IMG/VR virus record: IMGVR_UViG_2974580128_000001
Length of the DNA stretch: 64,000 nt
Direction: 5' to 3' (one strand)
Source: a virus
Lineage: Duplodnaviria; Heunggongvirae; Uroviricota; Caudoviricetes; Herelleviridae
In this document: piece by piece, positions 28,254 through 47,659 of the stretch
Position numbering within the stretch: position 1 is the first letter of the stretch
Layout: the number at the start of each line of letters is the position of its first letter
Made by a program: the position numbers and the translations under genes
Notes under the pieces: generated by a model
What the model was told of the DNA's origin: nothing
Database searches by the model: none
The model's input: only the letters and a program-made list of their open reading frames with translations

Positions 28254-29110
28254 TACTTGTCAGTGTCCACGATTGCTTGTCCGTCACCGATTGTAGTAGT
28301 AACCCAACCGTGTTCCTTACGAGCTTGTGCTTCTTCGTAACGAACTAATTCATCCGTAACAGATTCTGCAATTTTCTTGTTAGCTTCTGCTTGTGCATTA
28401 GCTTTATCTCTAATAGCTTGGGCTTCTGCTTGGGCTTTCAAAGTAACTTTTGTAGCCTCAGTTTCTGCTTGTGTTTTTTGAGTTTTAGCATCTAACTCAG
28501 CTTTTTTAGCTTCTTGTCCTGAACGGATGATTGCATCAATTGATTTTTGTGTTTCTGGGTCAACGTCAGGTACACCTACCGTTACGTTTTCAACTAAGAA
28601 ACCTTTACCTTCAACTGAATCAGAGAAACGAGCTAACACTTCTCCCTCAACCTCAGAAGACTTACCTGAAAGAACATCTAGTAAGCTGTACTTAGAGTAA
28701 ACTTCACGAGCAGTCTTTTGTAGACGAGATTTCAACCAACCTTTTTCAATGTCCTCAGATGTTACGTTACCGAACTCTTTGTACATTTTAGTTGCTTGTT
28801 TAGGGTCTACTTTGTAGTCATACTTAATGTTAACTACAGTTTTCTTACCGTCAGATGTAGAAACCGCAACATCTTTAGCTTGGATAGTTTGTAAACGGAT
28901 TGGGTATTGTGTTACTTTATCAATACCTACCCATTTAACACCGGGCTGTAATGCTTCGGATTTAACACCACCGTTAGGTGAGAAACGTACACCTACATAA
29001 CCGTTGTCGATTCGTTCGAAGAAACGGAAAGCACCGATTGTACCTCCAATCAATAAAATAACTGCAACCACTCCGGCTACGACTAGGCGTTTAAACGTCT
29101 TCTCGGTCAT
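28253..29110 (-). CDS. SPFH / band-7 domain membrane protein
   Basis: N-terminal TM segment, then GYVGVRF...core and a long Ala/Glu/Lys/Gln-rich coiled-coil tail typical of prohibitin/HflKC/YqiK-like proteins. Confidence 0.7.
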   Translation of the reverse strand: MTEKTFKRLVVAGVVAVILLIGGTIGAFRFFERIDNGYVGVRFSPNGGVKSEALQPGVKWVGIDKVTQYPIRLQTIQAKDVAVSTSDGKKTVVNIKYDYKVDPKQATKMYKEFGNVTSEDIEKGWLKSRLQKTAREVYSKYSLLDVLSGKSSEVEGEVLARFSDSVEGKGFLVENVTVGVPDVDPETQKSIDAIIRSGQEAKKAELDAKTQKTQAETEATKVTLKAQAEAQAIRDKANAQAEANKKIAESVTDELVRYEEAQARKEHGWVTTTIGDGQAIVDTDK

Positions 29111-29168
29111 AAAAATAATTCCTCCAATATTTAGTTTTTTATGTGTAAGTTTTCCCCTTACAAATAGT

Positions 29169-29197
29169 AGTATACCTTACACTGTATAACAAGTCAA
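29169..29197 (-). promoter_or_regulatory. minus-strand sigma-A-type promoter (TTGACT-17-TATACT)
   Basis: plus text agtata...aagtcaacaa upstream of the SPFH gene. Confidence 0.55.
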
Positions 29198-29207
29198 CAA
29201 CTTTTTT

Positions 29208-29861
29208 TTATTTTCTTGTGGAAAATAATTTAATGGGTGTATGGTCTTCCCCTTCAAGATACTTACCATCTTCCCACAAGACCACTGAGCCTTTCTCTAG
29301 GCTTCTCTGCACATCAAGGATACGTTGATTCCATGAACCGCGGAAAACAAGGTTAGGGTTGAATTTATCCTGCTCAAAACGACCATCTACTAGTACATCT
29401 ACGTAAGATAATAATTCAAGCTTATCTTCCCAGTTTTCAGCGTTAGAATCCGTAAGCTCTTCAAAGGTATAACCTGACCATGACCAGATTGTTTTACCTG
29501 TTAGCTCTGATTTAATACGTTTAGCTAAGGGCAGTAATACTTGCGTGTTTAAAAATGGTTCTCCACCCAATAGTGTGAGTCCTTCGCAATAATCTTGTGC
29601 AATATCTTTAAGAATTTGGTCTTCTACTTCTTGGGTGTAATCTTTACCCCAACTAAAGTTTTGCGCCTTTTTATTGTAACATCCTAAACAATTAAACGGA
29701 CAACCAGAGACGTAGATGCTTCCACGTACCCCGATACCGTCTACCATTACAGGAAATTTATAATCAGCATATTTACCCTTAGACAGTCTTTCTGCTGTCC
29801 ATGTCATTGGGTCTTTACTCATCTGTATTTCCCTCTTTCTTAACATGTAACCCTTCGTCAT
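29208..29861 (-). CDS. nrdG: anaerobic ribonucleotide reductase activating protein (radical SAM)
   Basis: CPFNCLGCYN = CxxxCxxC radical-SAM cluster motif; size and context with nrdD. Confidence 0.75.
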   Translation of the reverse strand: MTKGYMLRKREIQMSKDPMTWTAERLSKGKYADYKFPVMVDGIGVRGSIYVSGCPFNCLGCYNKKAQNFSWGKDYTQEVEDQILKDIAQDYCEGLTLLGGEPFLNTQVLLPLAKRIKSELTGKTIWSWSGYTFEELTDSNAENWEDKLELLSYVDVLVDGRFEQDKFNPNLVFRGSWNQRILDVQRSLEKGSVVLWEDGKYLEGEDHTPIKLFSTRK

Positions 29862-30108
29862 AACCTGATTGAGTGAACTTAGCTTGACAAATTGAACACT
29901 TGTAAGCCTTGTACCCTAAATTATTATAGGGTTTTACTTGGTCTTCACCGTCTTCATCTTGGTGTGTACATGCTTTTTGTAATGCCTTTAATACTTCATT
30001 TCGTTGCTTGATTAATCGCTCTTTCTTTGCTAAATGTCTGTGCTCTTCATGTAAAATCGCAGACTCTGCAATAGCTAAAAGATTTTGTAAAGAGGAAGCT
30101 GTACTCAT
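29815..30108 (-). CDS. hypothetical protein
   Basis: 97-aa ORF coupled between the ThyA-like gene and nrdG. Confidence 0.45.
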   Translation of the reverse strand: MSTASSLQNLLAIAESAILHEEHRHLAKKERLIKQRNEVLKALQKACTHQDEDGEDQVKPYNNLGYKAYKCSICQAKFTQSGYDEGLHVKKEGNTDE

Positions 30109-31070
30109 TAAATTGCCACCTCATAATTAAATCTTCCGTTATGTTTATAATCTTCAACCTTAAGTTTAGATAATGAGCATTCAAAGAAATTAGCCGTATC
30201 GTCTATTTCCCAAGGAAGAACCAATTTAGGTTCCGCATTTAGCACTTCGTCTGACATAGGAGCAGTTACCTGTTTGATTGCTTGTTCTATGTGACGGTCG
30301 TAGATATGTGCATTATCAATATTCCAGAACATTGTACCCAACTCTAAGCCAGATACCTTAGCCATAACTACATGTAACGCATGATACTGCAATACATTGA
30401 ATGGCAATCCTAAGCACACATCCGCACTGCGTTGCTTAACGTGTAAGTTCAACTTACCGCCCTGTACTGTCCAGTGAGTAGCCCATACACAAGGTTCTAA
30501 TGCCATTTCATCTAAGTCTTCCACATCCCATAGAGTTGTCATAATTCTACGAGAACTTCGATTGTATTTTAGTTGATATAGAATAGTTTCTACCTGATTA
30601 AACTTAACGTAGCACTTATAGTCTTTTGTTTCAGGGTTAACATCAACCATAATATCCTCTTCGGGAAAAAAGTCTTCCGGATAAGCTACATAAAATTCAT
30701 TATTCATGTCTAGTTGCACTTTACGTTTTTTATTGCGTAACTGCCAACCATAAGCTTTTCCGATTGTTCCATCTTCTTGTTCCCATTCATCCCAAATAGT
30801 CACTCCACGTTCTTGTAACCACTTGACATCATTAGACATTGCTTGCCAAATCCACTCTAATTCTGTAAATGCCCACTTAGAGCCTACAAATTTACTCTTA
30901 AGAATTGGCAGTCCCATGTCTGGTGTAATTTCAAAGCTTACACCTTCAATTGCATATGCAGGAGCAGGTTCCCCATCTTCATAGTGTGCTCGTACTTCAT
31001 CGGGGTTTTGCAAAATACCTTTTTCTTTGATGGCTAACACAAGGTCAGCATAAATTTTATCAAAACTCAT
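30108..31070 (-). CDS. thymidylate synthase (ThyA) family enzyme; thymidylate synthase or dUMP hydroxymethylase
   Basis: core matches ThyA by eye (LEPCVWATHW catalytic Cys region; QRSADVCLGLPFNVLQYHALHVVMA); substrate/product not decidable from sequence. Confidence 0.75.
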   Translation of the reverse strand: MSFDKIYADLVLAIKEKGILQNPDEVRAHYEDGEPAPAYAIEGVSFEITPDMGLPILKSKFVGSKWAFTELEWIWQAMSNDVKWLQERGVTIWDEWEQEDGTIGKAYGWQLRNKKRKVQLDMNNEFYVAYPEDFFPEEDIMVDVNPETKDYKCYVKFNQVETILYQLKYNRSSRRIMTTLWDVEDLDEMALEPCVWATHWTVQGGKLNLHVKQRSADVCLGLPFNVLQYHALHVVMAKVSGLELGTMFWNIDNAHIYDRHIEQAIKQVTAPMSDEVLNAEPKLVLPWEIDDTANFFECSLSKLKVEDYKHNGRFNYEVAI

Positions 31071-31085
31071 GTGTGTTCTCCTTTT

Positions 31086-31715
31086 CTATGTTCGTCTAAC
31101 TATATTGATAGAGTCTGTATACCCATTTCTTCGTACCCACTCTGTATAACTGTTGTGCTCTTCTTGCGCAATTGCTTTTAAAGAACCGTACCACTTCTTG
31201 ACTTCTTCCCGTTTTTTACGTTTGAATACTAATGATTTGTTTTTATCTATGACATTGATAATCTTACTTACTCCACCAGTATTATCTATAAGCATTAATC
31301 GGGAAATAGTGGGTTTTGGAGGAAATAACTTTTTGCATCCCTTACACAACTCCTCCGGCTCTTTTTTCCTACCCAGTGCACTCAAATCTGGTAGCGTTCT
31401 ACCACAACGTATACACTCAGTTCCATAAGCCTGCTCAAAATATTGTGCATTAATACGAGGAAACTTTTGCGTAAGTCTTAGATTAGTTGGGGGTGTTTTA
31501 ACTCTTTTTCTTAGTACTGTTTTGTTTTTCTTAACCCTAACACTAACTGAGTCATTACCATCAAAATTAAAAGAAAAACTAATTGTTCCAGAGGGGCTAA
31601 TTACCGGAGTAACTACATTGCGTTCTTCTCGGTCTGCTAACACCCGAACATCTGTTATACGTTTACGTCTTTTCTTTGTGAATAAACGTCCTCGTGTGTA
31701 GTCTATACCTTGCAT
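31086..31715 (-). CDS. hypothetical protein with CxxC zinc motifs
   Basis: 209 aa; CIRCG...CKGCKK. Confidence 0.5.
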   Translation of the reverse strand: MQGIDYTRGRLFTKKRRKRITDVRVLADREERNVVTPVISPSGTISFSFNFDGNDSVSVRVKKNKTVLRKRVKTPPTNLRLTQKFPRINAQYFEQAYGTECIRCGRTLPDLSALGRKKEPEELCKGCKKLFPPKPTISRLMLIDNTGGVSKIINVIDKNKSLVFKRKKREEVKKWYGSLKAIAQEEHNSYTEWVRRNGYTDSINIVRRT

Positions 31716-31716
31716 A

Positions 31717-32466
31717 TTACAAACCTAGCCATGAACGCACTTTACTGAAAGGGGGTTTCTTTTCAGGTTCCTTGTACTCAGAGTTTGTACGTTTTAATTT
31801 ATCATTGTAGTTATCTGCAAGTGTTAACAATTCATCAGGATTTACTGTTTCACAATAAAAAGCAATCTCTTCCCCAGTTAGCTCTCTATTTTCTTCAATC
31901 AATTTATCAAGAGTCAAATCGCAATACTCATCTTCCCAGTCAGCTAAGAAGTACATACGTTCCATGACATAATCTGATGTTTCATCTAAGAATATACCAA
32001 ATAGAATTGGGTCTTTATCTCGATTATCTTTTGCTACTTGTTGACCTACTTCATCTGTATAGTCTGTAAACATGATAACTAAGCGGTCAAATTTATCTTG
32101 TACACGTTCGATTACAGGAACAACTTCATCTGGAATTTCACGAGGGAAATCTTTGAGGTCAGCTAGTTTAACTGAACGATTTTCCACATTTTCAATAAAG
32201 TTTTCAATATCTTCTGAATACACAAAAGTTGTAATGCCCATATCTCGAATTTCTTTTTCTAATTGGATTGTTCTAATATGATGGCGTAATAAGGAAATCT
32301 GTCTATCTTGCTTTGTTTTAACTGCCTTTTCTAACATACGTAATGCGTTTGCGTAATAACGGTCTAAGTCGGCATCTTGATTTTCCTTTTTATTTTGCTT
32401 TACTCGTTCGAAAAACTCTGTAGGTGATAGTTCTTCTAATGGTTTCGTTGTTAAGTTTTCAGTCAT
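31717..32466 (-). CDS. hypothetical acidic protein
   Basis: ORF track 31717..32535; internal ATG 32466 preceded by RBS aggagg and promoter at 32504-32532. Confidence 0.5.
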   Translation of the reverse strand: MTENLTTKPLEELSPTEFFERVKQNKKENQDADLDRYYANALRMLEKAVKTKQDRQISLLRHHIRTIQLEKEIRDMGITTFVYSEDIENFIENVENRSVKLADLKDFPREIPDEVVPVIERVQDKFDRLVIMFTDYTDEVGQQVAKDNRDKDPILFGIFLDETSDYVMERMYFLADWEDEYCDLTLDKLIEENRELTGEEIAFYCETVNPDELLTLADNYNDKLKRTNSEYKEPEKKPPFSKVRSWLGL

Positions 32467-32503
32467 GATACATCCTCCTAAAAAAATATTCCTTACAGGA
32501 AAT

Positions 32504-32532
32504 AATATATCACCTGTAAGGAATAAAGTCAA
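32504..32532 (-). promoter_or_regulatory. minus-strand sigma-A-type promoter (TTGACT-17-TATATT)
   Basis: plus text aatata...aagtcaacac. Confidence 0.5.
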
Positions 32533-32539
32533 CACTATA

Positions 32540-33007
32540 TTAAAAAATTGTTGTAAGCATTTGACTGTGGTCTAACGCTAGAACAGCATCCCCAGTAACA
32601 CGCCCATCACGGTATAGAATAATTGTAGTATCATCGGTTGAGATGTCTACTTTAGCCTCGTGAGAGGTGATGGTAAACCATACGTAATCACTGTCAGATT
32701 CGTCTTCCTTACGTTCAGCATCTGACCGCATTTGAGCTATATACATTTGTGCAAGATTATGCCCAGAAGGGTCTCTATTAGGGTCTCCAAACACTGTAGA
32801 TGGACTAATACCTTCTTCTTGTCCGTCTAATGAAACTGTTTCTAAAATACTCTCAGCAAGCATATTAGGGGTATCTGTGGCTCCTAAAAAAGCGTTAGGT
32901 AACTCATATACACCTTCTTGAACTCGGTGTAGTAAAATAGTAGCACCTACTTCTAATTGGTTTCTTAATACAACTAAAGAAACGTTAAATCCTACTTTTT
33001 CAATCAT
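32540..33007 (-). CDS. hypothetical protein with degenerate Nudix-like segment
   Basis: G.Y.LPNA...AESILETVSL loosely resembles a Nudix box but lacks the conserved Glu residues; start at internal ATG 33007 after RBS ggagga. Confidence 0.3.
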   Translation of the reverse strand: MIEKVGFNVSLVVLRNQLEVGATILLHRVQEGVYELPNAFLGATDTPNMLAESILETVSLDGQEEGISPSTVFGDPNRDPSGHNLAQMYIAQMRSDAERKEDESDSDYVWFTITSHEAKVDISTDDTTIILYRDGRVTGDAVLALDHSQMLTTIF

Positions 33008-33269
33008 GTTCTTTCCTCCATTTTTCCATTTCATTTATTTTATCAGGCAATATTCTTCTTGTTAAACAACCTGTAGTACTTACATGAAGCCTTTGAACTC
33101 CATTATTTTTGCCTAGAACTTCGTCTGCTTTCTTATAGAGCATGTCTGTATGTTTTGGACAAGCTATCTCATTAAAAGATGCTCCGTTATCTGCTACACT
33201 TACAATCCCGTTTGCACAGAATCGACTACGACAACCTATACATTCATTCGCTAGTTTCTTCATGAGCAA
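33000..33269 (-). CDS. cysteine-rich small protein
   Basis: CIGCRSRFC...C...C. Confidence 0.45.
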   Translation of the reverse strand: MLMKKLANECIGCRSRFCANGIVSVADNGASFNEIACPKHTDMLYKKADEVLGKNNGVQRLHVSTTGCLTRRILPDKINEMEKWRKEHD

Positions 33270-33573
33270 CCTCCCACTCTGTGGCTTCCCTTAACTGTAG
33301 CTGTCTAGCTTCTTCTAAAGGACTGATGTAATCAGGTAGCTCATCTACCGGTGTAAAACGTTTTGTCCCGTCTTCAAGTATACCATAAAAATGGTCTGCC
33401 GGACGTGCAAAAACTGTGTTAGCATTTGGTGAATAAGGGTTAGGATACATTCTTCGATACAATACTAACTGCTCCCCAGTCTCTGTATGAAGTACATCAT
33501 CATATTCTAGTGTAGCATAATAAGCACCCTTATAATGACGAAACCACGTTCCGGCTCTATGCTTATATTCCAT
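33244..33573 (-). CDS. DUF1653-like protein
   Basis: RHYKGAYY motif typical of DUF1653. Confidence 0.45.
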   Translation of the reverse strand: MEYKHRAGTWFRHYKGAYYATLEYDDVLHTETGEQLVLYRRMYPNPYSPNANTVFARPADHFYGILEDGTKRFTPVDELPDYISPLEEARQLQLREATEWEVAHEETSE

Positions 33574-33577
33574 TCCT

Positions 33578-33605
33578 CTTCCCCCTCCCTAAAGAAAAGC
33601 TAGCA
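33578..33605 (-). terminator. minus-strand intrinsic terminator after the pnuC-like gene
   Basis: minus-strand agagctagcctagtgctagct hairpin followed by tttcttt. Confidence 0.5.
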
Positions 33606-34349
33606 CTAGGCTAGCTCTTTATTTTTACCTTTGGTTAATTTACCACTTTCATCATACCACGCATAGATGGCAGTTACAACATTTGTTTGATATAAAACAT
33701 CTCTAATTGCAAACCAGTAGTTACCAGAACCGAAATCTAGTAAGAACCAGAAGAAGTTACTTGCAAACCATCCCCACCATGAAAAGTCAATTCGCATAAT
33801 CATTAAGAATTGAGATACGATTCCTAGCAAGTAAGCAATAATGTTACCCCAATACATGATGTTACCCATTAGGGAACCATCTGTAGTAAAGCCAATTTTA
33901 TCTCCGTACATAATTAAGACAATTAAACCTACAATTGTAAATGCTAAAGTAAATACTACCCAAAAAGCGTTCATCTTACCTACTTTAATACGCCCATCTT
34001 CATCTTGATTGGATTCTTTTGTCCACTCTTTTAACCCGATAATGTGTGTAATACCGTAGTAAATACCTGCAAAAGCCAAACCGAAATTCCCAAACATAGT
34101 ATTAATAATAATTTCACCAACGTTAGAACTAATACCTAAGATATTCCCCATTTTAGGATAACGGTCTGCTAAAGATACCACACAAGGTACACCTAAACAG
34201 TACGCTGTGATATAAAATAACCAGTTAGTTTTATCTGACCAGTCAGTGACAAACACCCCCACAACCAGTCCCAGTACCACCAAAGTGATTGCGTACTGTT
34301 TGCGCCACTTCCCATTAGCTAGTGAAATATTGTCCATAAATGTTTTCAT
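33606..34349 (-). CDS. pnuC: PnuC-like nicotinamide riboside transporter (copy 2)
   Basis: polytopic membrane protein with two PnuC-like repeats rich in W/Y (..SWWGWFASNFFW..AIYAWYDE); internal ATG chosen at 34349, overlapping the nadR-like stop. Confidence 0.5.
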   Translation of the reverse strand: MKTFMDNISLANGKWRKQYAITLVVLGLVVGVFVTDWSDKTNWLFYITAYCLGVPCVVSLADRYPKMGNILGISSNVGEIIINTMFGNFGLAFAGIYYGITHIIGLKEWTKESNQDEDGRIKVGKMNAFWVVFTLAFTIVGLIVLIMYGDKIGFTTDGSLMGNIMYWGNIIAYLLGIVSQFLMIMRIDFSWWGWFASNFFWFLLDFGSGNYWFAIRDVLYQTNVVTAIYAWYDESGKLTKGKNKELA

Positions 34350-34350
34350 A

Positions 34351-35478
34351 TTATTTCTCCTCCTTGTTAGTCCAAATTTCGTCCACATATAATTGCAATG
34401 TATCAACTGTAGTTCCTTCTAGGTACTTTTCGATAATTTTCTTGCAAAGTTCATAACGAGTTTCATAATCACTCGCAGTTACTTCCACATATGGGATATG
34501 ATTCTCTGCGTATAATTTCTTCAACAGGTTTTGGAAGTCTTGTCTACGTTTTTCATCACCGATTAAACGCATACCATCATCTACCCATTTAGTCGAATTA
34601 TCTAGCAAAATAACCAAGTCAAAGCGGTCATTGTCAATCTTATCTTGTACAGATGGATGGGGTTTTCCTTCATACGTAATACAAAAGGCTTGTGTAGCTA
34701 CGTAGTCTGTATCTGAAATAGTAAATCTATTAGCATTACGTCTTGCAAATCTAACATCTTGATAGTGACCATTAGCAATTGCTTGGTAGTCACTGTACTG
34801 TAACGCACTCTCATCTCCGCCTAATTCAAGTTCACAGTAGTTACGACCGTATTCCCAAACAGTCGTAGTAGCAAAGTAGTTACCTAGCTTATCTACCATC
34901 AAAGTTTTACCACTAGACTCTCCTCCTGCAATTACAATTGTAGGAGCCAATGCTTCCCGGCTAGCACGAGGTAGATAGTCCCAGTACTTAATAGGGTTGT
35001 TACGTACTTTTGTTGCACTAATGTTAACATTAGAACGCTCTGGGTCTACTAACGTAGTAGGACAGCCAAAGTATTTTTGGTACCCTTCCGCATCCTGTGG
35101 TTCACTTGAAAAGAAGGTTGCTTCTTCCCAATCAAAACCTCTTTCAGCCAACACACGATTACCTGTTACAGTCTCTTTCACAAGGTTTGCCCATGCTTCC
35201 CATCCGTTAGGATACTCTGGAATGCTTGATTCATCTACGAGTACAGGAATGATAATATCTCGTTGAACTTGAAAAGTCTTTTGAACAATTCGTAGTTTGT
35301 CTCGTGCTGTTAGTGGACGTTTCATGTTAGAATCCATGTATAAACGGTCATCTCTACTGTCTGAGTGGCTTACCACTACAACAAGAGTCTCTACTTGTGT
35401 GCTTGCTTTTTGAATCATATCTACATGTCCTTTGTGTAAGGGATAGAATTTCCCAACTACTACTCCGAACTTTTTCAT
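34351..35478 (-). CDS. nadR: bifunctional NMN adenylyltransferase / ribosylnicotinamide kinase (NadR-like)
   Basis: N-terminal GKFYPLHKGH (HxGH nucleotidyltransferase motif) and C-terminal P-loop GGESSGKT kinase domain. Confidence 0.75.
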   Translation of the reverse strand: MKKFGVVVGKFYPLHKGHVDMIQKASTQVETLVVVVSHSDSRDDRLYMDSNMKRPLTARDKLRIVQKTFQVQRDIIIPVLVDESSIPEYPNGWEAWANLVKETVTGNRVLAERGFDWEEATFFSSEPQDAEGYQKYFGCPTTLVDPERSNVNISATKVRNNPIKYWDYLPRASREALAPTIVIAGGESSGKTLMVDKLGNYFATTTVWEYGRNYCELELGGDESALQYSDYQAIANGHYQDVRFARRNANRFTISDTDYVATQAFCITYEGKPHPSVQDKIDNDRFDLVILLDNSTKWVDDGMRLIGDEKRRQDFQNLLKKLYAENHIPYVEVTASDYETRYELCKKIIEKYLEGTTVDTLQLYVDEIWTNKEEK

Positions 35479-35532
35479 ACCTTATTCCTCCTTTTAGGTA
35501 TTTTTTACTATAATTAATTATACCACACTTTA

Positions 35533-36270
35533 CTAGTTATTTTCAATATAAAAATAGCCATAAATTAAACCAATTGTTAGTGCAATCCACCCGATAACAA
35601 TTAATATCGTAGAAAGGATTCCTTTAGACAATTTGGACTCAACAAATTTATCATATGCAGTATAAGAAACGTTAATAGCGCTGTCTTTACCTCTAACTGA
35701 CTGTAACCCATTTTCACTAGCATCCGCAAGGAAAGTTAAATGTAACTTCTTAGGTACGCCATAGTAGGTAATACGTACATCTGATGATAAGTACTTAGTA
35801 GTTATATACTTGCCATCGAACCCAGTAAACTTGTTAAAATCGTATATATGGTCGTGTACTTTAACTTTATCAACCTGTTTAGTTTTAGAACCATAGTACA
35901 CCCATTCCCAGTAAGTTTCTGTTTTAGTTTTTGTGTTACCTTTCTCGTCTACATAACTAACTGTTCTAGTCCGCATCTCATAGTGTTCCTCTTCTGCAAC
36001 AACTTTCATGTATTCTCCACCAATACGAGGAAACGTTACTGGTTTTATTGCTATGAAATCACTATGCGTATAAAAGATACCTTGTTGTGTATCTAACACG
36101 TAATCATACGTTTCTTTATCATCTGCCGGAATAGCGGTTTCGTACATTTGATTCGATTTTATCCGGTTCTCTTCTACTTTTCCATGTACCCATATTCCTA
36201 GTAAACTAGTTAAGGTAACAATTAGCATAGGAATAATGATGAACCGGATTCTACCGTCCACCCGTATCAT
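35533..36270 (-). CDS. membrane-anchored protein (N- and C-terminal TM segments)
   Basis: 245 aa; hydrophobic ends. Confidence 0.5.
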   Translation of the reverse strand: MIRVDGRIRFIIIPMLIVTLTSLLGIWVHGKVEENRIKSNQMYETAIPADDKETYDYVLDTQQGIFYTHSDFIAIKPVTFPRIGGEYMKVVAEEEHYEMRTRTVSYVDEKGNTKTKTETYWEWVYYGSKTKQVDKVKVHDHIYDFNKFTGFDGKYITTKYLSSDVRITYYGVPKKLHLTFLADASENGLQSVRGKDSAINVSYTAYDKFVESKLSKGILSTILIVIGWIALTIGLIYGYFYIENN

Positions 36271-36815
36271 TTGCTAAACAGGTCTGTATGACCTTTAGGC
36301 TCCACAGGGATTGTTAACAATTCATAATCTTGTACTTCATACCCTTGCAGTGCAAGTAACTTACGATTTAAGAAAGTTCTAGTAAATCGTTTATAGTCTG
36401 AAATTTGTCGGTTATAAGCTTTACGATGACTAGCAACTCGATTCTCTGTAATACTGAACTCCTTCATTGCTTGTTTGTAATTATCCTGTGATTTAAGTTC
36501 TGGATACTTTTCGACTACTGCATTTAAAGTCGTTTTAGCTGAGTCTACTTTACCAGTTTCTGCTTGTTGTCTTGCTTTAACAATAAGCTCTAATGTACTC
36601 TTTTCGTAGTTATTATAGCTCTCAATAGCATCTACTAAATTTTGAAACAAATCTACTCGTCTGTTTTCCTCAGTATTTAAATCACCATAGGCTTGCTCAA
36701 TAGATACTTCGTAACTGATAGCTCTATTTTCTACATGTTTTACTCCAAAAAATGTAACAATACCTAATAATAAAACCCCTACTAGTGAAATAATAATTGT
36801 ATTCGCTTTACCCAT
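36267..36815 (-). CDS. LemA-family membrane protein
   Basis: N-terminal TM segment, then a helical domain with the LemA-like pattern. Confidence 0.6.
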   Translation of the reverse strand: MGKANTIIISLVGVLLLGIVTFFGVKHVENRAISYEVSIEQAYGDLNTEENRRVDLFQNLVDAIESYNNYEKSTLELIVKARQQAETGKVDSAKTTLNAVVEKYPELKSQDNYKQAMKEFSITENRVASHRKAYNRQISDYKRFTRTFLNRKLLALQGYEVQDYELLTIPVEPKGHTDLFSK

Positions 36816-37185
36816 GTGCTTTTCCTCCTAAGAACTGTTTAAGAATTTCTCTCCAATTGACATATTCTGTTGTATGTCCTTTGTCATCAATGTAAACATC
36901 TGCACCAAGCTTACGGCTGTTATTACCATATGCTTTCATCAAATCTGGATGATTCTCATTGATGTAGTGATAGTTAATACCACATTCTGCCAAAAACCTT
37001 TTTGCTTGTTCTAACTCTTCGCCTTCACGACATGTCCATATAAGAATTTGTTTTCCTGACTTGTATAGGCTGTTAATCACTTCTTTTGCATGTGGTTGTA
37101 GCCCTACAATATTTGGAAATTCACTTCTTACAATAGTGTCATCAAAGTCGATAGCTATGTATTTGCACTTTGATAAATCTTTCAT
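36808..37185 (-). CDS. HAD-superfamily phosphatase (5'-nucleotidase-like)
   Basis: motif I IAIDFDDTIV and a distal DD motif. Confidence 0.6.
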   Translation of the reverse strand: MKDLSKCKYIAIDFDDTIVRSEFPNIVGLQPHAKEVINSLYKSGKQILIWTCREGEELEQAKRFLAECGINYHYINENHPDLMKAYGNNSRKLGADVYIDDKGHTTEYVNWREILKQFLGGKAHG

Positions 37186-37236
37186 TTGTTTCTCCTTTCA
37201 AATAAAAAAGGTATACCCTTCTTTGCTACAAGAAGA

Positions 37237-37265
37237 AGTATACCTTATGAGTATCACTAAGTCAA
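37237..37265 (-). promoter_or_regulatory. minus-strand sigma-A-type promoter (TTGACT-17-TATACT)
   Basis: plus text agtata...aagtcaacac upstream of the HAD phosphatase gene. Confidence 0.55.
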
Positions 37266-37279
37266 CACTATCTTACAAA

Positions 37280-37519
37280 TTATTTGTAAGAATTTTTTAT
37301 TTCTTTGATTTTTCCCATTTGTACGCCCGTAAAACTAATACCTGTAGATGTTTCTACGTAAGGTAATGAAGTTACGGACTTACTAACTAAATAATCTCTG
37401 GCTGTTGGGTCTTCATCAATGTTTCGTTCTTCAAAGAGAATTTTCTCCCCTTCAAGCATACGTTTCACGAATGTACACTGACCACAACCATTTTTTGAGT
37501 AGACTGTTACTTTAGGCAT
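37280..37519 (-). CDS. nrdH: NrdH/glutaredoxin-like redoxin
   Basis: 79 aa; CGQC active-site motif in a thioredoxin-fold context. Confidence 0.7.
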   Translation of the reverse strand: MPKVTVYSKNGCGQCTFVKRMLEGEKILFEERNIDEDPTARDYLVSKSVTSLPYVETSTGISFTGVQMGKIKEIKNSYK

Positions 37520-38276
37520 GAGGAACCTCCTTTTTAAACCATTTAGAGTTTGTAAATGCTAATACATCATTTGCTAGGTATAACATGTAAGTCAGCATTA
37601 GTACATAAACTGCATGTCCATGTAAAGCTGTTTGAATCCATAGAGCTACTGACATTAGTCCTTGGAAAGTCCAGAAGTAATATTGTGCTCTAAAGCCTTT
37701 CACACACAGTACAGCTCCAACTAAACCAATCATTGCACTTGTTGCATCTAAGAAAGCCTGCGGTGAATGTAAAACAACCGTATCTAATAAGTATAAAGCA
37801 ACCCAGAAAACAACAATAAGACCTAATGTTTTAAGCATGTGTACAGGTTGCATTTTACGAGGTTTCAAACCCTCATTCCATTGTTTAGAGAAGATGATAG
37901 GAATATCTAACAAAACAATATAAGCAGTTTGCATAATAATATCACTGTAGTTACCTGTTACAGTTGCTACACCGATTAATAGAATAGCAGAAATAAATCC
38001 TAAAATACCATTAATTGATTTACCCATTGTAATTGTTACAGTACATGTAAATCCAATAATTCCTGCAATTGTAGCAGTAAACCCTGTCATTGTTAACCCT
38101 TGACCTTGTAGCATAGGTAGAATAATACCGGTAAATACTTGGACTGCCATTCCGACAAACCATAATACACGAGCTGATTTATTCCAACCAGTTAAACCAT
38201 CTTTATAATATTCGTAAGTGAATAATTTTTCAATATTTCCTTTGTTATCTTTCCAAAACTTTTTTAACTTGTCCAT
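37512..38276 (-). CDS. pnuC: PnuC-like nicotinamide riboside transporter (copy 1)
   Basis: polytopic membrane protein; duplicated motif ..TGNYSDIIMQ...IFSKQW.. and ..NDVLAFTNSKWFKK resembling PnuC repeats. Confidence 0.5.
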   Translation of the reverse strand: MDKLKKFWKDNKGNIEKLFTYEYYKDGLTGWNKSARVLWFVGMAVQVFTGIILPMLQGQGLTMTGFTATIAGIIGFTCTVTITMGKSINGILGFISAILLIGVATVTGNYSDIIMQTAYIVLLDIPIIFSKQWNEGLKPRKMQPVHMLKTLGLIVVFWVALYLLDTVVLHSPQAFLDATSAMIGLVGAVLCVKGFRAQYYFWTFQGLMSVALWIQTALHGHAVYVLMLTYMLYLANDVLAFTNSKWFKKEVPHA

Positions 38277-38293
38277 TTGTTATTTTTCCTCCA

Positions 38294-39115
38294 TTAAATA
38301 GCTTTCTCTAGTGTGTATAAGTCTTGATTGTCAGTAAACTTGCTTAATTCATGGAAAGGTAGTTTACCCTCTAATCTATTATATAGCTTCAATGCAACTT
38401 GTGTAGCGTGGTCTTTACACCAAGGTAAGCCGTTTAACTCACATAAACATTTAACTGTATCTACAGTAGATAGTGCCCCGACTTCACACAACTTACTCAA
38501 AATAATTGTTAACAAGTAAACACGGTCTCCCTTATCATTCACAAAGTCTTTATCTGTTACATCTAAAACAATTTTAGGGAATCCCATATCTTTTTGTAAC
38601 CAATTTTGATAGTTCTCATGATGGCGTTTAAAGTATTCGTATAATTCAGTACCCTCTTCTACTTTCTCAAACTCACGGGCACGTGCATTGATTCGTTTGA
38701 TTTCTTCTTCAAAAGAACAATTTAATACAATCATTAAATCGGGAGTCTTTTTAGGTAATGGTTCTAATTCTTTTAACATACGATTAAGCAATCGGTGATA
38801 AACTCCCTGTTCCATTTCTGTAACATGACCCTCTTGTACTAGTTGGTCTAAGAAGATACTGTCTTCAAAAATAGAACGGTCTAAAATACCGTTATCTACA
38901 CTCATAGCTTCTTGAATCATTTCGAAGCGTTTAGATAGCATATCTATTTGGAAAAGTAGTCCATACTTTGCTTTATCTTGGTAGAACAATTCAAGCATTG
39001 GATTTTCCTCTACCGGTTCATAAACTGCTTTTGTGTTTAAAAGATTTGCTAATATTTCTGTCATTGATGATTTACCTACACCAATAACTCCGGCTAATGT
39101 AATTATCATAACCAT
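38294..39115 (-). CDS. deoxynucleoside / deoxynucleotide kinase (dNK family)
   Basis: P-loop GVIGVGKSS at the N-terminus; ERS-like motif. Confidence 0.65.
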   Translation of the reverse strand: MVMIITLAGVIGVGKSSMTEILANLLNTKAVYEPVEENPMLELFYQDKAKYGLLFQIDMLSKRFEMIQEAMSVDNGILDRSIFEDSIFLDQLVQEGHVTEMEQGVYHRLLNRMLKELEPLPKKTPDLMIVLNCSFEEEIKRINARAREFEKVEEGTELYEYFKRHHENYQNWLQKDMGFPKIVLDVTDKDFVNDKGDRVYLLTIILSKLCEVGALSTVDTVKCLCELNGLPWCKDHATQVALKLYNRLEGKLPFHELSKFTDNQDLYTLEKAI

Positions 39116-39178
39116 CTCCTCTAACTTTTTCTTATTTTTGACAATATTAAGAGCCTGCTAGTCAGGCTCTAATAAACC

Positions 39179-41350
39179 TTACATATGTTTCACACGTGCA
39201 TCTATTTCTTTTTTACGTCCGTGTGCATTAGGACGAGCTTGTGGTTGACCCAAATATCCACATTGCCTTTTAACGACATCGCATGTTGCGGGGTCATTAT
39301 TCCCACATTGTGGACATTCGTAGCCGTCTGATGTGGGGTTAAACTCTCCGTCAAAACCACATTCATGACATTTATCAATCGGGGTGTTTGTTCCTAAATA
39401 ACCAACTTTATCATAGCTGTAGTCCCAAACAGCTTCTAACGCCTTAAGGTTATGAACTAATTTAGGGTACTCTACATAGTGAATAAAACCACCAGAAGCA
39501 TATTTTGGAAACTCTTTCTCAAAGTCAATCTTTTCAAAAGGTGTTGGAGCTTTACGAACATCATAGTGGAAACTATTTGTATAGTATTCTTTGTCTGTAA
39601 TGTTCTCGATGATTCCATATTTTTCTGTGTCCATACGACAGAATCTATCGGTTAGACTTTCACTTGGTGTTGAGTAGATAGAAAACCAGATACCTGTCTC
39701 TTTTGTCCATTCATCCTTTTTATCATAAAGCTTACGTAAAACATCTAAAGCAAACTCTTTTGCCTCTTCATGATGTGGGTCTGTTTTATCTTGCCAGTCA
39801 CCACCGTAGAACATGCTAGCAACCTCGTACAGCCCAATATAACCCATAGAAACCGTTGCACGGTTATTTATGAACAATTGTTTTACATCGTCATCATCGG
39901 TTAAATTAGCTCCAAAAGCACCATGTTTGTACAAGATAGGAGCATTCTTTGGTTGAGCTTCATAAGTACGTTCAATTCGATAAGCCAAAGCATCATGTAA
40001 TACCTTAGCTCGTTCTTCAAAAATTTCCCAGAAGACTTCTTTATCCCCTTCTGATTCAATAGCAATACGTGGTAAGTTAAGGGTTACTACTCCTAAATTC
40101 ATACGACCAGAGTTTACTTCGTTTCCATGTTCATCTTTCCATCCTTGTAAGAATGAACGACAACCCATAGGACATTTAAATGAGCCTGTTAGCTCAACAA
40201 TTTTGTCATAGTTCAAAATATCAGGGTACATACGTTTAGCTGAACATTCTAATGCTAACTGTTTTACTTCATAGTTAGGGTCTTCTGGTTTACGGTTAAC
40301 TCCGTCTTTAATAGTGAACAATAATTTAGGGAAGATTGCTGTACGTCCTTCTGTACCTAGACCTTGGATACGTACTTTAAAAATAGCTTTTTGGATTTCT
40401 CTTTCCCAACGTCCAGTACCTAAACCAAAACCAATAGACGTGAAAGGAGTCTGACCATTCGATGTAAATAACGTATTAATTTCATACTCTAGGCTTTGCA
40501 TTGCATCGTAAATATCTTTGTTTGTTTTCTCGATTGCATATGTTTCTGGCTCAGGAATACGATAACGTTTAGCATCTGTCATATGTTTTTGATAATTCAT
40601 TTCAGCATAAGGTGCTAATACTTCATCAATACGGTCAAACGAACAACCACCATATTGACTGGAAGCCACATTCGCAATAATTTGTGCTGTTTGTGCTGTA
40701 GCTGTTTGAATGGAATGTGGTGAACCTATTTCTGCGTTACCCATTTTAAACCCATTCTTCAACATATATTCAAAGTCAATCAAACAACAATTTGTCATTG
40801 GACGATAAGGTTGATAGTCTAAATCGTGATAATGAATATCTCCACGTAAATGTGCGTTAGCTACATGAGGAGGGAGCATTTTAAGACCCTCAACTTTGTT
40901 AACTGTACCTGCTGTAAGGTCTCGTTCTGTTGCAAATGTATTTGAGTCCTTATTTGCATTCTCATTGACAATAGTTTTGTCCTTTTCTTGTAGCTTACGT
41001 AATCTTACATTAATATCTGTATCACCTGCACGTTCAGCATCACGTAAAGAACGAAACTCAATATAGTTTCTAGCTACGTTTTTAGCAAAAGATTTCATTA
41101 ATTCCTGCTCTACAATACTTTGGAGTTTTGCAATATCGACACGTCCTGTATCGCTGTAATGCTTCACTACAAAGCGTTTAACACGTTCAGCTATAATCTC
41201 TCCTAAATCTGTTTTAGCGCCCGTAGCATCCTTCTCAGCTCGTCCTACGGCACGTACAATCCTTCCTTCATTAAACTTGACAGTTCTTCCGTCTCGTTTA
41301 ACTACAAAAATCTGTTTTGTCTTAACATCTACATCTTGTGTTGCTTGCAC
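39179..41350 (-). CDS. nrdD: anaerobic ribonucleoside-triphosphate reductase (class III RNR)
   Basis: 723 aa; C-terminal glycyl-radical motif ..RQCGYLGQ and CxxC zinc motifs. Confidence 0.85.
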   Translation of the reverse strand: MQATQDVDVKTKQIFVVKRDGRTVKFNEGRIVRAVGRAEKDATGAKTDLGEIIAERVKRFVVKHYSDTGRVDIAKLQSIVEQELMKSFAKNVARNYIEFRSLRDAERAGDTDINVRLRKLQEKDKTIVNENANKDSNTFATERDLTAGTVNKVEGLKMLPPHVANAHLRGDIHYHDLDYQPYRPMTNCCLIDFEYMLKNGFKMGNAEIGSPHSIQTATAQTAQIIANVASSQYGGCSFDRIDEVLAPYAEMNYQKHMTDAKRYRIPEPETYAIEKTNKDIYDAMQSLEYEINTLFTSNGQTPFTSIGFGLGTGRWEREIQKAIFKVRIQGLGTEGRTAIFPKLLFTIKDGVNRKPEDPNYEVKQLALECSAKRMYPDILNYDKIVELTGSFKCPMGCRSFLQGWKDEHGNEVNSGRMNLGVVTLNLPRIAIESEGDKEVFWEIFEERAKVLHDALAYRIERTYEAQPKNAPILYKHGAFGANLTDDDDVKQLFINNRATVSMGYIGLYEVASMFYGGDWQDKTDPHHEEAKEFALDVLRKLYDKKDEWTKETGIWFSIYSTPSESLTDRFCRMDTEKYGIIENITDKEYYTNSFHYDVRKAPTPFEKIDFEKEFPKYASGGFIHYVEYPKLVHNLKALEAVWDYSYDKVGYLGTNTPIDKCHECGFDGEFNPTSDGYECPQCGNNDPATCDVVKRQCGYLGQPQARPNAHGRKKEIDARVKHM

Positions 41351-41439
41351 TCAAAGTTCCACCTTTCTTACAATATCTAGTATACTTAGTATAGCATAAC
41401 AATACTTACAGTGCAAGATGTAATTGCCAACAAAAAATA

Positions 41440-41472
41440 AAAGACTACAAACTAAGTTGTAGTCTTTTTCAA
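41440..41472. terminator. bidirectional terminator hairpin
   Basis: aaaagactacaaactaagttgtagtcttttt: perfect 9-bp stem flanked by A and T runs. Confidence 0.55.
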
Positions 41473-41500
41473 CAAATATTACAAATTGATTAATTTTTTC

Positions 41501-41770
41501 TCAGATTAGCTCACCTAAGAAATCTTCACCATCATCTGGTTTCTTGTGCTTATACTCATCCGTTTTGAGCATTAGGTACTTGTTACCTGTTTCTACTTGT
41601 AACCTCTCAAAAGCTCTACGGTACTCCTCAGCACTAGATGTAGCATCTAGTAGGAACTTAGCATTAAGGATGGCTAAAACCGCTAGTAGCTCTTCTCGAC
41701 TACCAGACATCTGTACCTTAACTTTACCATCCTCAGTCGTATAAGCTCCGATTTTATTCTTGATTGCCAC
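41501..41770 (-). CDS. hypothetical protein
   Basis: 89-aa ORF. Confidence 0.5.
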   Translation of the reverse strand: MAIKNKIGAYTTEDGKVKVQMSGSREELLAVLAILNAKFLLDATSSAEEYRRAFERLQVETGNKYLMLKTDEYKHKKPDDGEDFLGELI

Positions 41771-41781
41771 AGTTACACCTC

Positions 41782-42612
41782 TTAATCTTTTAATTTAATT
41801 TTAGGCATAGCTTCAAGAAGTTTATTATTGAACTTTCCAGAAATAACAGCTTCCCCAAGTTCATTTGTTACCACGGAAATCCAGTAAGGAGACTTCGGTT
41901 TCAAACGATTGTTATTAACATCTAGGAATGCTCTAAACAATCGAGGGAAAGAGGTTACTCCTACTAATTTACTAGCAAGGTCATGCGCAATAACTTTCTT
42001 AGTGAAACGCTCTGCATTGAATGAGTCTAGCGTATACAACAAGAAATAAACTCCCTGCAACTGTGTGTTTGACCTAAAATCTGTTGAATCAATAAACTTT
42101 TGATATGACTGAGCAAACTTGACATATTCTTTATAGTTACGGAAACGGAACGCACCATCACGTACAACATCTGTTTTTCTTCCTGCTGTACTACTATAAC
42201 CTAACGCAGTAGAAATAGTAGAGGACACCCGTAATGCCGGATACGTAGACATCAAGTTCAACAGTTGTTTATAACTTTGGTATCCTGATTCGGCATACTT
42301 ATGGATGTAGTCTTCGACCTTCCATGATTTACTTGTACTATTCAATTCTGCAACATCAATGTCACTGTCATCGAACGTATAAGTAATGGGTAACCCAAGT
42401 TCACGAGCTACAGCTAAACGGTGTTGTCCGTCAATAACTTCCATCTTTCGATTTACTTTAATCTCAGTAAGAACCCCACGTTTCGAAATTGAGTCCCGTA
42501 AAGCCTTAGAAATTTTAACTGGTCTGTTTCCTTTTAGTTGTTTGAATTTAGACAGGTCTGCTGTTTCATAGACCTGTTTTACTGCTTTATCTTGCTTCTT
42601 TTCTTTAGACAC
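41782..42612 (-). CDS. ParB/Srx-like nuclease-domain protein
   Basis: N-terminal ..LKGNRPV...VIDGQHRLAVARELG ParB-box-like motif. Confidence 0.55.
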   Translation of the reverse strand: MSKEKKQDKAVKQVYETADLSKFKQLKGNRPVKISKALRDSISKRGVLTEIKVNRKMEVIDGQHRLAVARELGLPITYTFDDSDIDVAELNSTSKSWKVEDYIHKYAESGYQSYKQLLNLMSTYPALRVSSTISTALGYSSTAGRKTDVVRDGAFRFRNYKEYVKFAQSYQKFIDSTDFRSNTQLQGVYFLLYTLDSFNAERFTKKVIAHDLASKLVGVTSFPRLFRAFLDVNNNRLKPKSPYWISVVTNELGEAVISGKFNNKLLEAMPKIKLKD

Positions 42613-45029: not shown

Positions 45030-45615
45030 CTTTATGCTCTGGCAACCTAAGAGGTTAGAGCTATGGCAAAATACCAAAACCTTTTTGATATGTAACAAGA
45101 ATCTATTTTATACGTTGCTCTACCAACTGAGCTACAGGGGGAATCATCCTCCCGGCAGGACTCGAACCTGCGACCAACGGCTCCATAGGCAATAAAAATC
45201 GCTGTTAGATTCTTTATGTTCCGGCACCCATCAAGGATGGAACTATAGCTATGCTAAAACCGTTTTATTTATGTATCAAGAAGCAGTTATGCCACCAATC
45301 GGCATCCTCATAATTTGGGTTGAGAATATAGGAGTTGAACCTAAGTAAGGGTTTGCTGTATGCTTCTTTATGCTTCGGCGCCCATTAAGGGTGAAGCTAT
45401 GACCTAAGCCAAAACCGTTTTATTTATGTAACAAGAACGCATTAACTTTAAGCTTTACCAATTAAGCTATACCACCAATGGTGGCAGTTGGATTCGAACC
45501 AACAACTCACATTTTTCAGATGTATTAGTTTTAAAAGTTTGCTGTGGCGTTCTTTATGTTCCGGCTACCTGTTAGGTTGGAACTATGACATATGTCAAAA
45601 CCTTTTTATCTTGTC
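45030..45615 (-). ncRNA. three tandem circularly permuted tRNA-like modules (Y-RNA/YrlA-like tRNA mimics) separated by four copies of a ~75-nt repeat
   Basis: minus-strand order in each module is T-arm (e.g. GGTCGCAGGTTCGAGTCCTGCC), closed acceptor-like hairpin, D-arm (e.g. GTAGCTCAGTTGGTAGAGC), all bracketed by an imperfect closing stem; repeat units A 45031-45108, B 45196-45270, C 45352-45428, D 45540-45612 show compensatory changes in an internal hairpin. Confidence 0.55.
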
Positions 45616-46468: not shown

Positions 46469-46547
46469 TTAACTTATACATATATTATAACACAAACTTA
46501 CATGATGTCAACAACTATTTGTAAGTTTTTTTAATTTATCCATTCGG

Positions 46548-46634
46548 GACAGTGTGCTTTAACCATTCAGCCACCCGCAGGGGTAACCCGCAGGACGGGA
46601 TTCGAACCCGTATACCACTGTCCTATTGGATAGG
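46548..46634 (-). ncRNA. fourth permuted tRNA-like module (T-arm ACGGGTTCGAATCCCGT, then D-arm-like GCTGAATGGTTAAAGC) closed by 8-bp stem GGACAGTG/CACTGTCC
   Basis: T-arm precedes D-arm on the transcribed strand; no complementary acceptor strands at the ends; outer inverted repeat at 46548-46555 and 46627-46634. Confidence 0.45.
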
Positions 46635-46789
46635 CTTGTGTACCTGTCATCTTCCGATTACACACACCTAGTCTAGTTACCGTACCAATAGATTTGACAG
46701 GAATCTAGGGTAACGCCCAATATGGTGTTAATTTACCTTGTATTCTGTTACAGGTTTGCAACCCTGAACAAGGATGACCAATCCTAATG

Positions 46790-46859: not shown

Positions 46860-46912
46860 TTAATTTCTAGCTAGGTAACTAAATTCACTGCACCTTGCGC
46901 AGAGTACAGCTA

Positions 46913-46985: not shown

Positions 46986-46993
46986 GTATAAAA

Positions 46994-47634: not shown

Positions 47635-47659
47635 GATTAGCCTCCATTATCTTTAATGA

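Follow-up and report, generated by a model that had tools for sequence, protein, structure and literature searches.

Genes and features of the region

Here we describe a 4.7-kb region (positions 33606-38276) within a stretch of 64,000 nucleotides of viral DNA (IMG/VR record IMGVR_UViG_2974580128_000001, Herelleviridae; hereafter the window). It encodes a NadR-like enzyme of nicotinamide adenine dinucleotide (NAD+) synthesis and two Pnu-family membrane facilitators, which we call PnuC-A and PnuC-B. Enterococcus phage EfV12-phi1 (MH880817.1 / NC_048087.1; Herelleviridae, Brockvirinae, Schiekvirus), whose host is E. faecium, contains the region with 100% identity and in the same coordinates, and ~30 related Enterococcus phages contain it with 90-99% identity. 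An earlier interpretation made from the letters alone (the sequence-only reading) had combined three open reading frames (ORFs) into one NAD-salvage module, in which two PnuC-like transporters flank a bifunctional NadR-like enzyme, with a HAD phosphatase and NrdH possibly linked to it. All three ORFs (33606..34349, 34351..35478 and 37512..38276) are present on the minus strand. On balance, however, we read the locus as two separate precursor-salvage units, a NadR-PnuC-B cassette of the NARP3 type and an operon for the supply of deoxynucleoside triphosphates (dNTPs) that includes PnuC-A. In the direction of transcription, the genes are ordered nrdD, dNK, PnuC-A, NrdH, HAD, LemA, two-TM, NadR and PnuC-B:

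39179..41350, minus strand: nrdD, class III (anaerobic) ribonucleotide reductase NrdD, first gene of the proposed dNTP-supply operon (GenBank annotation and ORF)
38294..39115, minus strand: deoxynucleoside kinase dNK, dAK/dGK-like (PF01712, 129 bits; PDB 8puu, 85 bits, and 2jaq/2jas, 75 bits)
37512..38276, minus strand: PnuC-A, Pnu-family facilitator of a distinct subfamily (PF04973, 81.6 bits; TIGR01528, 72.3 bits; AlphaFold2 (AF2) model compared with 4QTN)
37280..37519, minus strand: NrdH-like glutaredoxin, last gene of the operon (PF00462, 47.9 bits; TIGR02194, 59 bits, under its cut-off)
37198..37246, minus strand: strong intrinsic terminator (hairpin 37208-37246 followed by U6AUUU)
36808..37185, minus strand: capless HAD phosphatase, BT0820 family (NF046079, 88 bits, under the cut-off; PDB 2OBB, 58.7 bits)
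36267-36815, minus strand: LemA-family protein (domain/PHROG match)
35533-36270, minus strand: protein with two transmembrane (TM) helices, phrog_3886 (domain/PHROG match)
35517..35546, minus strand: candidate sigma-70-like promoter, TTGAAA-18-TGgTATAAT, 11/12 consensus match, directly upstream of NadR
34351..35478, minus strand: NadR-like bifunctional enzyme without helix-turn-helix (HTH) domain, 375 aa (NF005988, 454 bits; TIGR01526, 356 bits)
33606..34349, minus strand: PnuC-B, divergent Pnu-family facilitator (PF04973, 47.6 bits; phrog_1880, 1e-39; AF2 model compared with 4QTN)
33595..33619, minus strand: weak hairpin that overlaps the stop codon of PnuC-B, with TTTCTTT after it (dG -12.5 kcal/mol, z -0.69)

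An HTH-less NadR

The route from nicotinamide riboside (NR) via nicotinamide mononucleotide (NMN) to NAD+, which the sequence-only reading took to be distinct from the published phage pathways, is no longer new. Osterman et al. (2024 preprint) noted that phage NadR genes usually lie in one operon with PnuC and suggested "yet another pathway" to NAD+. This was demonstrated and named NARP3 by Yan et al. (Sci Adv, August 2026, PMC13464706) for Bas30_86 and Bas30_87 of the T5-like Escherichia phage TrudiRoth, and GenBank already annotates the NadR/PnuC genes of this route. Bas30_87 binds NR with a Kd of ~0.66 uM and Bas30_86 turns NR into NAD+; together they restored NAD+, rescued T7 and lambda 10^3-10^4-fold against Sir2-HerA and counteracted DSR1 as well (PMC13464706). 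The system was described as largely restricted to phages of Enterobacteriaceae (124 matches), and the paper makes no mention of Enterococcus, Lactobacillus or Gram-positive hosts (PMC13464706).

The enzyme encoded at 34351..35478 belongs to the NadR family. It clears the cut-offs of both NF005988 (201) and TIGR01526 (341) with the scores listed above, and among structures it matches H. influenzae NadR 1LW7 (359 bits), 8x7f (339 bits) and 9x6f (196 bits), the last of which, a 357-aa "nicotinamide-nucleotide adenylyltransferase", may be the structure of Bas30_86. The HTH domain is absent, as the NF005988 alignment begins at model position 63 and a multiple sequence alignment with HTH-bearing NadRs shows no N-terminal extension. 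All motifs of both activities are intact. In the NMN adenylyltransferase (NMNAT) part, both catalytic histidines of the nucleotidyltransferase are present (H15 and H18, in the HxGH motif GKFYPLH15KGH18), followed by ISATKVR at 153-159. The ribosylnicotinamide kinase (RNK) part contains Walker A GGESSGKT at 185-192, SDTDY at 255-259 and WVDDGMR at 298-304, near-identical to 1LW7. Judged by these matches and motifs, the protein is an HTH-less bifunctional NadR with a predicted N-terminal NMNAT and a predicted C-terminal RNK, which agrees with the sequence-only reading.

The residues studied in Bas30_86 point in the same direction. The NMNAT residues at which mutations disable that enzyme, K10, F11, S37, E80, P84, G89, F110, S112, V139 and I141, are kept as K10, F11, S37, E83, P87, G92, F123, S125, V151 and I153, with the one exception of D115, which is Q128 here, as in NadR of the E. 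coli / H. influenzae type. The kinase residue D275 corresponds to D287. Conservation does not extend to K163, R167, K168 and E230, which were derived from docking and which cellular NadR does not keep either. Overall, the identity amounts to ~36% with Bas30_86 and to ~46-47% with cellular NadR of H. influenzae and Enterobacterales. Among cellular proteins, those of Leptotrichia (49%) and gammaproteobacterial NadR (~47%) come nearest, and all closer matches are HTH-less and phage-like. A recent capture of NadR from an Enterococcus host was also considered and is unsupported, given these nearest cellular relatives. Homologues occur in 747 phage records, including Vibrio ICP1, Bacillus, Lactobacillus and Prevotella Lak phages and 27 Enterococcus records.

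The divergent facilitator PnuC-B

Both membrane proteins exceed the gathering score of PF04973 (27.3), and their AlphaFold models (pLDDT 86.2 and 87.4) match solely the PnuC structure 4QTN with a probability of 1.00 and TM-scores of 0.67-0.77, the next matches having E>0.5. The assignment of both as PnuC-like therefore stands, with no unrelated family among the matches.

Ligand binding in Pnu proteins involves the motif WxxW(x)3D/N in the sixth transmembrane helix (TM6) (PMC5749112). Mutation shows the D/N of this motif to be essential, in PnuT by D166A and in Bas30_87 by N180A; the NR-coordinating residues validated in Bas30_87 are N45, Q94 and N180 (PMC13464706). In PnuC-B, the motif reads W191-W-G-W194-F-A-S-N198 (WxxW(x)3N) and is invariant in the PnuC-B family, with N198 at the position of N180. 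The position of N45 is taken by G53, and 4QTN likewise has a Gly there; at the position of Q94 stands H102, a His that is invariant across the family. This family is small and almost restricted to phages, with 13 clusters among 5.8 billion proteins.

Concerning the start of the gene, the GenBank/RefSeq coding sequence 33606-34181 begins at an internal ATG and thereby omits 56 N-terminal residues, among them the first transmembrane helix. The start at 34349 is preceded by the strong ribosome-binding site AAGGAGGAG, and the N-terminal stretch that it restores is conserved in homologues and helical in the model. Because of this ribosome-binding site and the conserved N-terminal helix, 34349 is the better start in comparison to 34181.

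A side observation concerns the phages phiSHEF16 (OL799260.1, 54182-56440) and TJE1 (ON506927.1, 105892-108171). Their NadR is 97-98% identical to the window copy; the adjoining PnuC-B is ~55% identical and has a loop insertion of ~26 aa, and the two genes are separated by a spacer of ~370 nt. Such a pattern resembles an allele swap limited to the transporter, which suggests that the transporter is under diversifying pressure.

NadR and PnuC-B as one cassette

NadR and PnuC-B are tightly linked. The two co-oriented genes are joined by TAA-T-ATG with a gap of 1 nt, they are found in the identical set of Enterococcus phage records (27/27), and a NadR gene also lies directly upstream of divergent PnuC-B homologues (57%, 54% and 46% identity) in all three contexts seen (3/3). 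The candidate promoter at 35517..35546 is the best-scoring site in 29000-42000; it is a consensus match, and the total of promoter-like sites in the region is not above that of shuffles. At the other end, the hairpin at 33595..33619 is no more stable than shuffles and marks a possible end of the unit, which would thus span 35546..33595. Moreover, all phage Pnu proteins examined that are linked to NadR (PnuC-B, Bas30_87 and those of Bromius, Kirov and ICP1) have WxxW(x)3D/N.

By analogy with the experimentally tested Bas30_86/87 pair, PnuC-B is likely an NR importer partnered with NadR. It would let external NR diffuse into the cell, where the kinase domain of NadR would phosphorylate it and trap it as NMN, and the NMNAT domain would adenylate NMN to NAD+. 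In this way, NAD+ could be raised or restored during infection, including after defences of the NADase type have fired. Such an effect, which the sequence-only reading had proposed against NAD+-depleting defences, is established for the homologous architecture of TrudiRoth (PMC13464706) and may extend by analogy to the cassette of the window. As a whole, NadR and PnuC-B look like an independently assembled NARP3-type cassette of a Gram-positive phage, since NadR is nearer to cellular NadR than to Bas30_86 and PnuC-B has no BLAST-detectable similarity to Bas30_87.

A further observation concerns metallophosphoesterase and Nudix genes. In the window, a cluster at 21018-23192 (minus strand), 11 kb downstream of the NAD unit in the direction of transcription, encodes a metallophosphoesterase with an ApaH/PrpE-like N-terminus, a YfcE-like phosphodiesterase and a protein annotated as MutT/Nudix in RefSeq (no NCBIfam match). 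In the contexts of divergent PnuC-B homologues, Metallophos/Nudix genes lie directly upstream of NadR (locus L035) or ~0.5 kb downstream of PnuC-B (locus L037). Several Enterococcus sp. assemblies, with L035 (Enterococcus sp. DIV1059_2, JBIOQK010000002.1) and sibling contigs of 203-216 kb among them, have in common a contig of ~205-216 kb with the order Metallophos, Nudix, NadR (460 aa, extended at its C-terminus) and a PnuC-B-like gene. SSB, RecA-like and integrase-like genes lie on it as well, and it may represent a jumbo phage or phage-plasmid with its own NARP3-like unit.

PnuC-A within a probable terminator-bounded nucleotide operon

PnuC-A is located 2 kb upstream of NadR, with four genes and a strong terminator between them. 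Hence, the flanking arrangement originally proposed holds in a loose sense; PnuC-B abuts NadR, and PnuC-A does not. The terminator after nrdH has a dG of -19.2 kcal/mol (z -3.68), and none of 200 shuffles was as stable; a second terminator lies at 41439-41468, upstream of nrdD. Inside these boundaries the genes are closely packed, with a gap of 17 nt between dNK and PnuC-A and an overlap of 8 nt between nrdH and the PnuC-A stop. NrdH belongs with the ribonucleotide reductase (RNR)/dNK operon, and its supposed linkage to the NAD unit is dropped.

The TM6 motif of PnuC-A differs from that of PnuC-B. It reads Y199-Y-F-W202-T-F-Q205-G206. In three independent alignments, G206 falls on the essential D/N and D124 on the validated Gln, so that PnuC-A has Gly instead of the D/N of WxxW(x)3D/N. 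The pattern YxxWxxQG is found in 36/42 PnuC-A-family loci scanned, from phages as well as bacteria, and in 0 loci of other Pnu subfamilies. A third Pnu subfamily in lactic acid bacteria (26 loci) carries YxxWLxS[D/N/G], mostly with D.

PnuC-A-type genes occur in 116 phage records, mostly of Enterococcus, Lactobacillus, Weissella and Lactococcus phages, and the phage dNK (131 records) has a matching taxonomic spread. The more distant IMG/VR loci came from an alignment-based scan; a single-sequence scan gave close relatives only. In ~10 separate phage lineages, a dNK gene lies at most 1.5 kb from the PnuC-A-type gene: Schiekvirus; VPE25-like phages (NDT, dNK, Pnu); EH93P2 (with an inserted HNH gene); the IMG/VR loci L025/L026 (NrdH, dNK, Pnu); Lactococcus phage KSY1; L015/L016; L103/L104; Lactobacillus phages 3-521 and Lb338-1; and Efs 1-1-1. 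NDT or Grx are further neighbours of PnuC-A-type genes in other phages. A NadR gene adjoins the PnuC-A-type gene in 0 of ~17 phage lineages and in 0 of 50 bacterial loci. The Enterococcus myophages EFP01, 113 and EF1/EF5 have dNK or PnuC-A matches of at least 98% identity, EFP01 carrying both, and are not among the NadR/PnuC-B matches. Lactobacillus phage Bromius (NC_048085.1) has both Pnu types, with a PnuC, NadR, Nudix operon at 46777-49185, in which the order is the reverse of that in EfV12-phi1 and the transporter carries a WxxW(x)3D motif, and a PnuC-A-type gene 80 kb away at 128880-129644. That Bromius keeps both at this distance argues against redundancy of the two Pnu types. Bromius is also a second Herelleviridae lineage with both types.

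Within the Pnu family, thiamine (PnuT) and riboflavin (PnuX) facilitators are known. According to PMC7749635, PnuN was predicted by Rodionov & Gelfand 2005 as an NrdR-regulated PnuC-like deoxynucleoside transporter of Lactobacillales, and later literature continues to call it predicted. A gene named PnuN in L. brevis was co-induced with RNR genes. For PnuC-A, gene context and the changed ligand motif leave the chances of (deoxy)nucleoside import about evenly balanced, import of NR appears rather unlikely, and the rest falls to another substrate. If PnuC-A admits deoxynucleosides (or nucleosides), dNK would trap them as deoxynucleoside monophosphates and thereby supplement the anaerobic RNR. 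The unit nrdD-dNK-PnuC-A-nrdH (~41416..37198) would then be a terminator-bounded dNTP-supply operon that applies the same logic of facilitated diffusion and metabolic trapping to DNA precursors.

No Rfam riboswitch, including the NAD+-II/pnuC motif, was detected in window positions 28-48 kb or upstream of the Companilactobacillus homologues of PnuC-A. Directly upstream of the closest bacterial homologues, we found a conserved leader of ~90 nt (gttcgagta...gttgaaga.gacaac...gggttctggacgaggggattctaaataagagggagatttag; L006 5890-6000, L008 5900-5995 and L039 ~4900-4995, from Companilactobacillus and Lactobacillus sp.) for which Rfam gave no match even at E<=10. This leader could be a regulatory RNA that has escaped recognition, in which case it would reveal the ligand of the transporter. 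Besides, mobile endonucleases seem to have a hotspot in the nucleotide-metabolism operon: two lineages (L005 4456-4974; L103/L104 5701-6174) have HNH/NUMOD homing-endonuclease genes between dNK and the Pnu gene, and in relatives (L010-L013) nrdD is split by an insert of ~0.8-1 kb that EfV12-phi1 lacks.

Genes between the two units

Phage records with the HAD phosphatase number 176. Among them are SPO1 (gp30.2) and A511 and P100 of Listeria, which are not among the matches of the NadR or PnuC-B searches. We therefore rejected it as a part of the NAD unit, to which the sequence-only reading had tentatively linked it, and regard it as a conserved Herelleviridae gene. The LemA gene and its two-TM neighbour were likewise rejected, as they are absent from Porthos-like relatives that keep HAD, NadR and PnuC-B (L010-L012); as an indel pair, they are not needed by the NAD unit. 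The HAD, LemA and two-TM genes thus belong to neither pathway.

Two salvage units or one

The central question is whether both transporters serve NAD+ synthesis. We consider it reasonably probable that the locus holds two separate precursor-salvage units, a NARP3-type cassette and a dNTP-supply operon, and PnuC-A is probably outside the NAD module because of the terminator, its dNK neighbours, its retention in phages without a NadR match and the Gly at the D/N position. The alternative of one NAD-salvage module with two NR importers, in which PnuC-A would differ in affinity, timing or precursor (such as NMN or nicotinic acid riboside) and NadR would be supplied by both, draws on real features: both genes lie on the same strand within 5 kb, PnuC-A surpasses the cut-off of the PnuC equivalog TIGR01528, and of the two it is closer to canonical PnuC in sequence and fold. 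Nevertheless, we judge this unlikely. The strong terminator separates the two transporter genes, PnuC-A homologues adjoin dNK in ~10 lineages and NadR in none of ~17 phage lineages and 50 bacterial loci, sister phages that are not among the NadR matches retain PnuC-A, Bromius keeps its two Pnu genes 80 kb apart, and PnuC-A has a Gly at the essential D/N and an Asp at the validated Gln. Of the proposed module, NadR and the adjoining PnuC-B are consequently supported, and the inclusion of two transporters is not.

What PnuC-A carries is a separate matter. Tentatively, and with somewhat less than even confidence, we propose that it represents a YxxWxxQG Pnu subfamily that imports deoxynucleosides and, with dNK (and NDT in other phages), would offer phages of lactic acid bacteria a self-contained, RNR-independent route to dNTPs. 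In analogy to the NARP pathways, this route could blunt dNTP-depleting defences such as dCTP deaminases and dGTPases. Import of thiamine, riboflavin or another ribosylated/heterocyclic vitamin, with the proximity to dNK as incidental clustering of early genes, seems improbable. The existence of PnuT and PnuX and the occurrence of PnuC-A as an isolated moron in some phage lineages would fit such a role, but no thiamine or riboflavin kinase is encoded near PnuC-A, PnuT keeps the motif D where PnuC-A has Gly, and the pairing with dNK recurs in lineages that share no other neighbours. As to the selective force on the other unit, NadR-PnuC-B may be a general auxiliary metabolic unit that boosts NAD+ for replication, as proposed for KVP40-type salvage genes, rather than one selected for counter-defence. 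We see this as possible, albeit on the doubtful side. NadR homologues occur in phages of very different hosts, and surveys of jumbo phages call NAD+ synthesis clusters metabolic augmentation. Furthermore, NR is not a cleavage product of NADases; therefore, the route depends on environmental NR and does not recycle the breakdown products. Against this stands the homologous two-gene unit that restored NAD+, rescued T7 and lambda against Sir2-HerA and counteracted DSR1, and metabolic and counter-defence roles are not mutually exclusive.

Several findings weigh against the two-unit reading. With regard to the NAD cassette, PnuC-B reaches 26 bits on TIGR01528, under the equivalog cut-off of 42.45, which PnuC-A passes with 72.3 bits, and its overall similarity to canonical NR transporters is lower than that of PnuC-A. 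It is barely alignable to Bas30_87 (blastp E 0.48) and has a His at the position of the validated Q94. The promoter and the weak 3' hairpin are consensus-level calls, and NARP3 function was demonstrated for a coliphage pair and not for a Gram-positive phage; for the cassette of the window, the family of the enzyme, its intact motifs and the gene linkage are seen directly, and the substrate of PnuC-B and a counter-defence role are proposed by analogy. With regard to the dNTP-supply operon, a deoxynucleoside-transporting Pnu protein is itself a prediction ("PnuN", 2005). PnuC-A comes without an adjoining dNK in ~7 phage lineages, some of which carry it as an isolated moron, for example between terminase and portal genes. 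The bacterial homologues are solitary in that dNK, nrd and NadR genes are all missing within 5 kb; they sit after lepA or beside QueT, a context that is uninformative. Finally, a search of the window for NrdR boxes, a weak test, gave 2 matches (<=3 mismatches) versus 2.04 expected, neither near the operon, and the same weak test found no boxes above chance upstream of 50 bacterial PnuC-A homologues.

Wider meaning and further observations

Depletion of NAD+ is a common end-point of bacterial immunity, shared by Sir2, TIR, DSR and Thoeris systems. Up to now, the demonstration of NARP3 comes from a single coliphage pair expressed in E. coli, and the window locus would widen the range of the pathway through independently acquired, highly divergent parts. 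Its architecture is a fixed trait of the Schiekvirus group; these Enterococcus phages are strictly lytic, and some were isolated for phage-therapy work. One prediction is that plating on defence-carrying enterococci may depend on NR in the medium. Splitting PnuC-A from the NAD unit would also correct the annotation "NMN transporter" in >100 phage genomes. As a testable candidate for the predicted deoxynucleoside branch of the Pnu family, PnuC-A is the more original, though unproven, lead; if it holds true, EfV12-phi1 carries two parallel import-and-trap units against depletion, one for NAD+ and one for dNTPs.

Elsewhere in the window, the gene at 9087-9605 (minus strand) encodes a NADAR/YbiA-family protein (TIGR02464, 147 bits, above the cut-off) with a weaker match to a NADAR-family anti-phage model. 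NADAR domains act on ADP-ribose adducts, and this may be another gene of EfV12-phi1 tied to NAD/ADP-ribose conflicts. In the tRNA cluster, Y-RNA-like matches (YrlA, RF02553) lie at 45086-45199, 45425-45532 and 46533-46633 (minus strand), with 45, 34 and 28 bits, each short of the gathering score of 69, and an RtcB-type ligase is encoded at 10889-12133. YrlA and RtcB are linked in bacteria.

Comparison with known systems

The dNTP-supply operon is best compared with PnuN. Like it, PnuC-A is a Pnu protein of Lactobacillales and their phages, co-located with genes for RNR and a deoxynucleoside kinase, and RAST-based records give its homologues the name PnuN. It differs in that no NrdR boxes were detected here or upstream of the bacterial homologues.

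With NARP1 and NARP2 (Osterman et al. 2024), the NadR-PnuC-B cassette would share the rebuilding of NAD+ by phage-encoded enzymes during infection. In contrast, NARP1 uses ADPR-PP synthetase and Namat on ADP-ribose and nicotinamide, and NARP2 uses Nampt and NMNAT on nicotinamide, both without a transporter. The predicted chemistry is the same as in the cellular PnuC/NadR salvage of H. influenzae, Salmonella and E. coli (4QTN, 1LW7), with facilitated diffusion, trapping by a kinase and adenylation, and with a NadR of the same domains and motifs. Here, however, NadR lacks the HTH domain, the genes are united in one cassette, in contrast to their dispersal in E. coli, and PnuC-B belongs to a highly divergent, almost phage-only subfamily.

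The closest counterpart is NARP3. The unit of the window, known here from its sequence, differs from it in belonging to a Herelleviridae myovirus of a Gram-positive host, in the ~36% identity of NadR to Bas30_86 and in a PnuC-B without BLAST-detectable similarity to Bas30_87. Nevertheless, both are co-oriented two-gene units in which an HTH-less RNK-NMNAT enzyme is followed by a transporter of the Pnu fold, with the gene order and 1-nt spacing seen for Bas30_86/87 of TrudiRoth, an order that is also found in ICP1, and the essential Asn of the TM6 motif is kept in PnuC-B.

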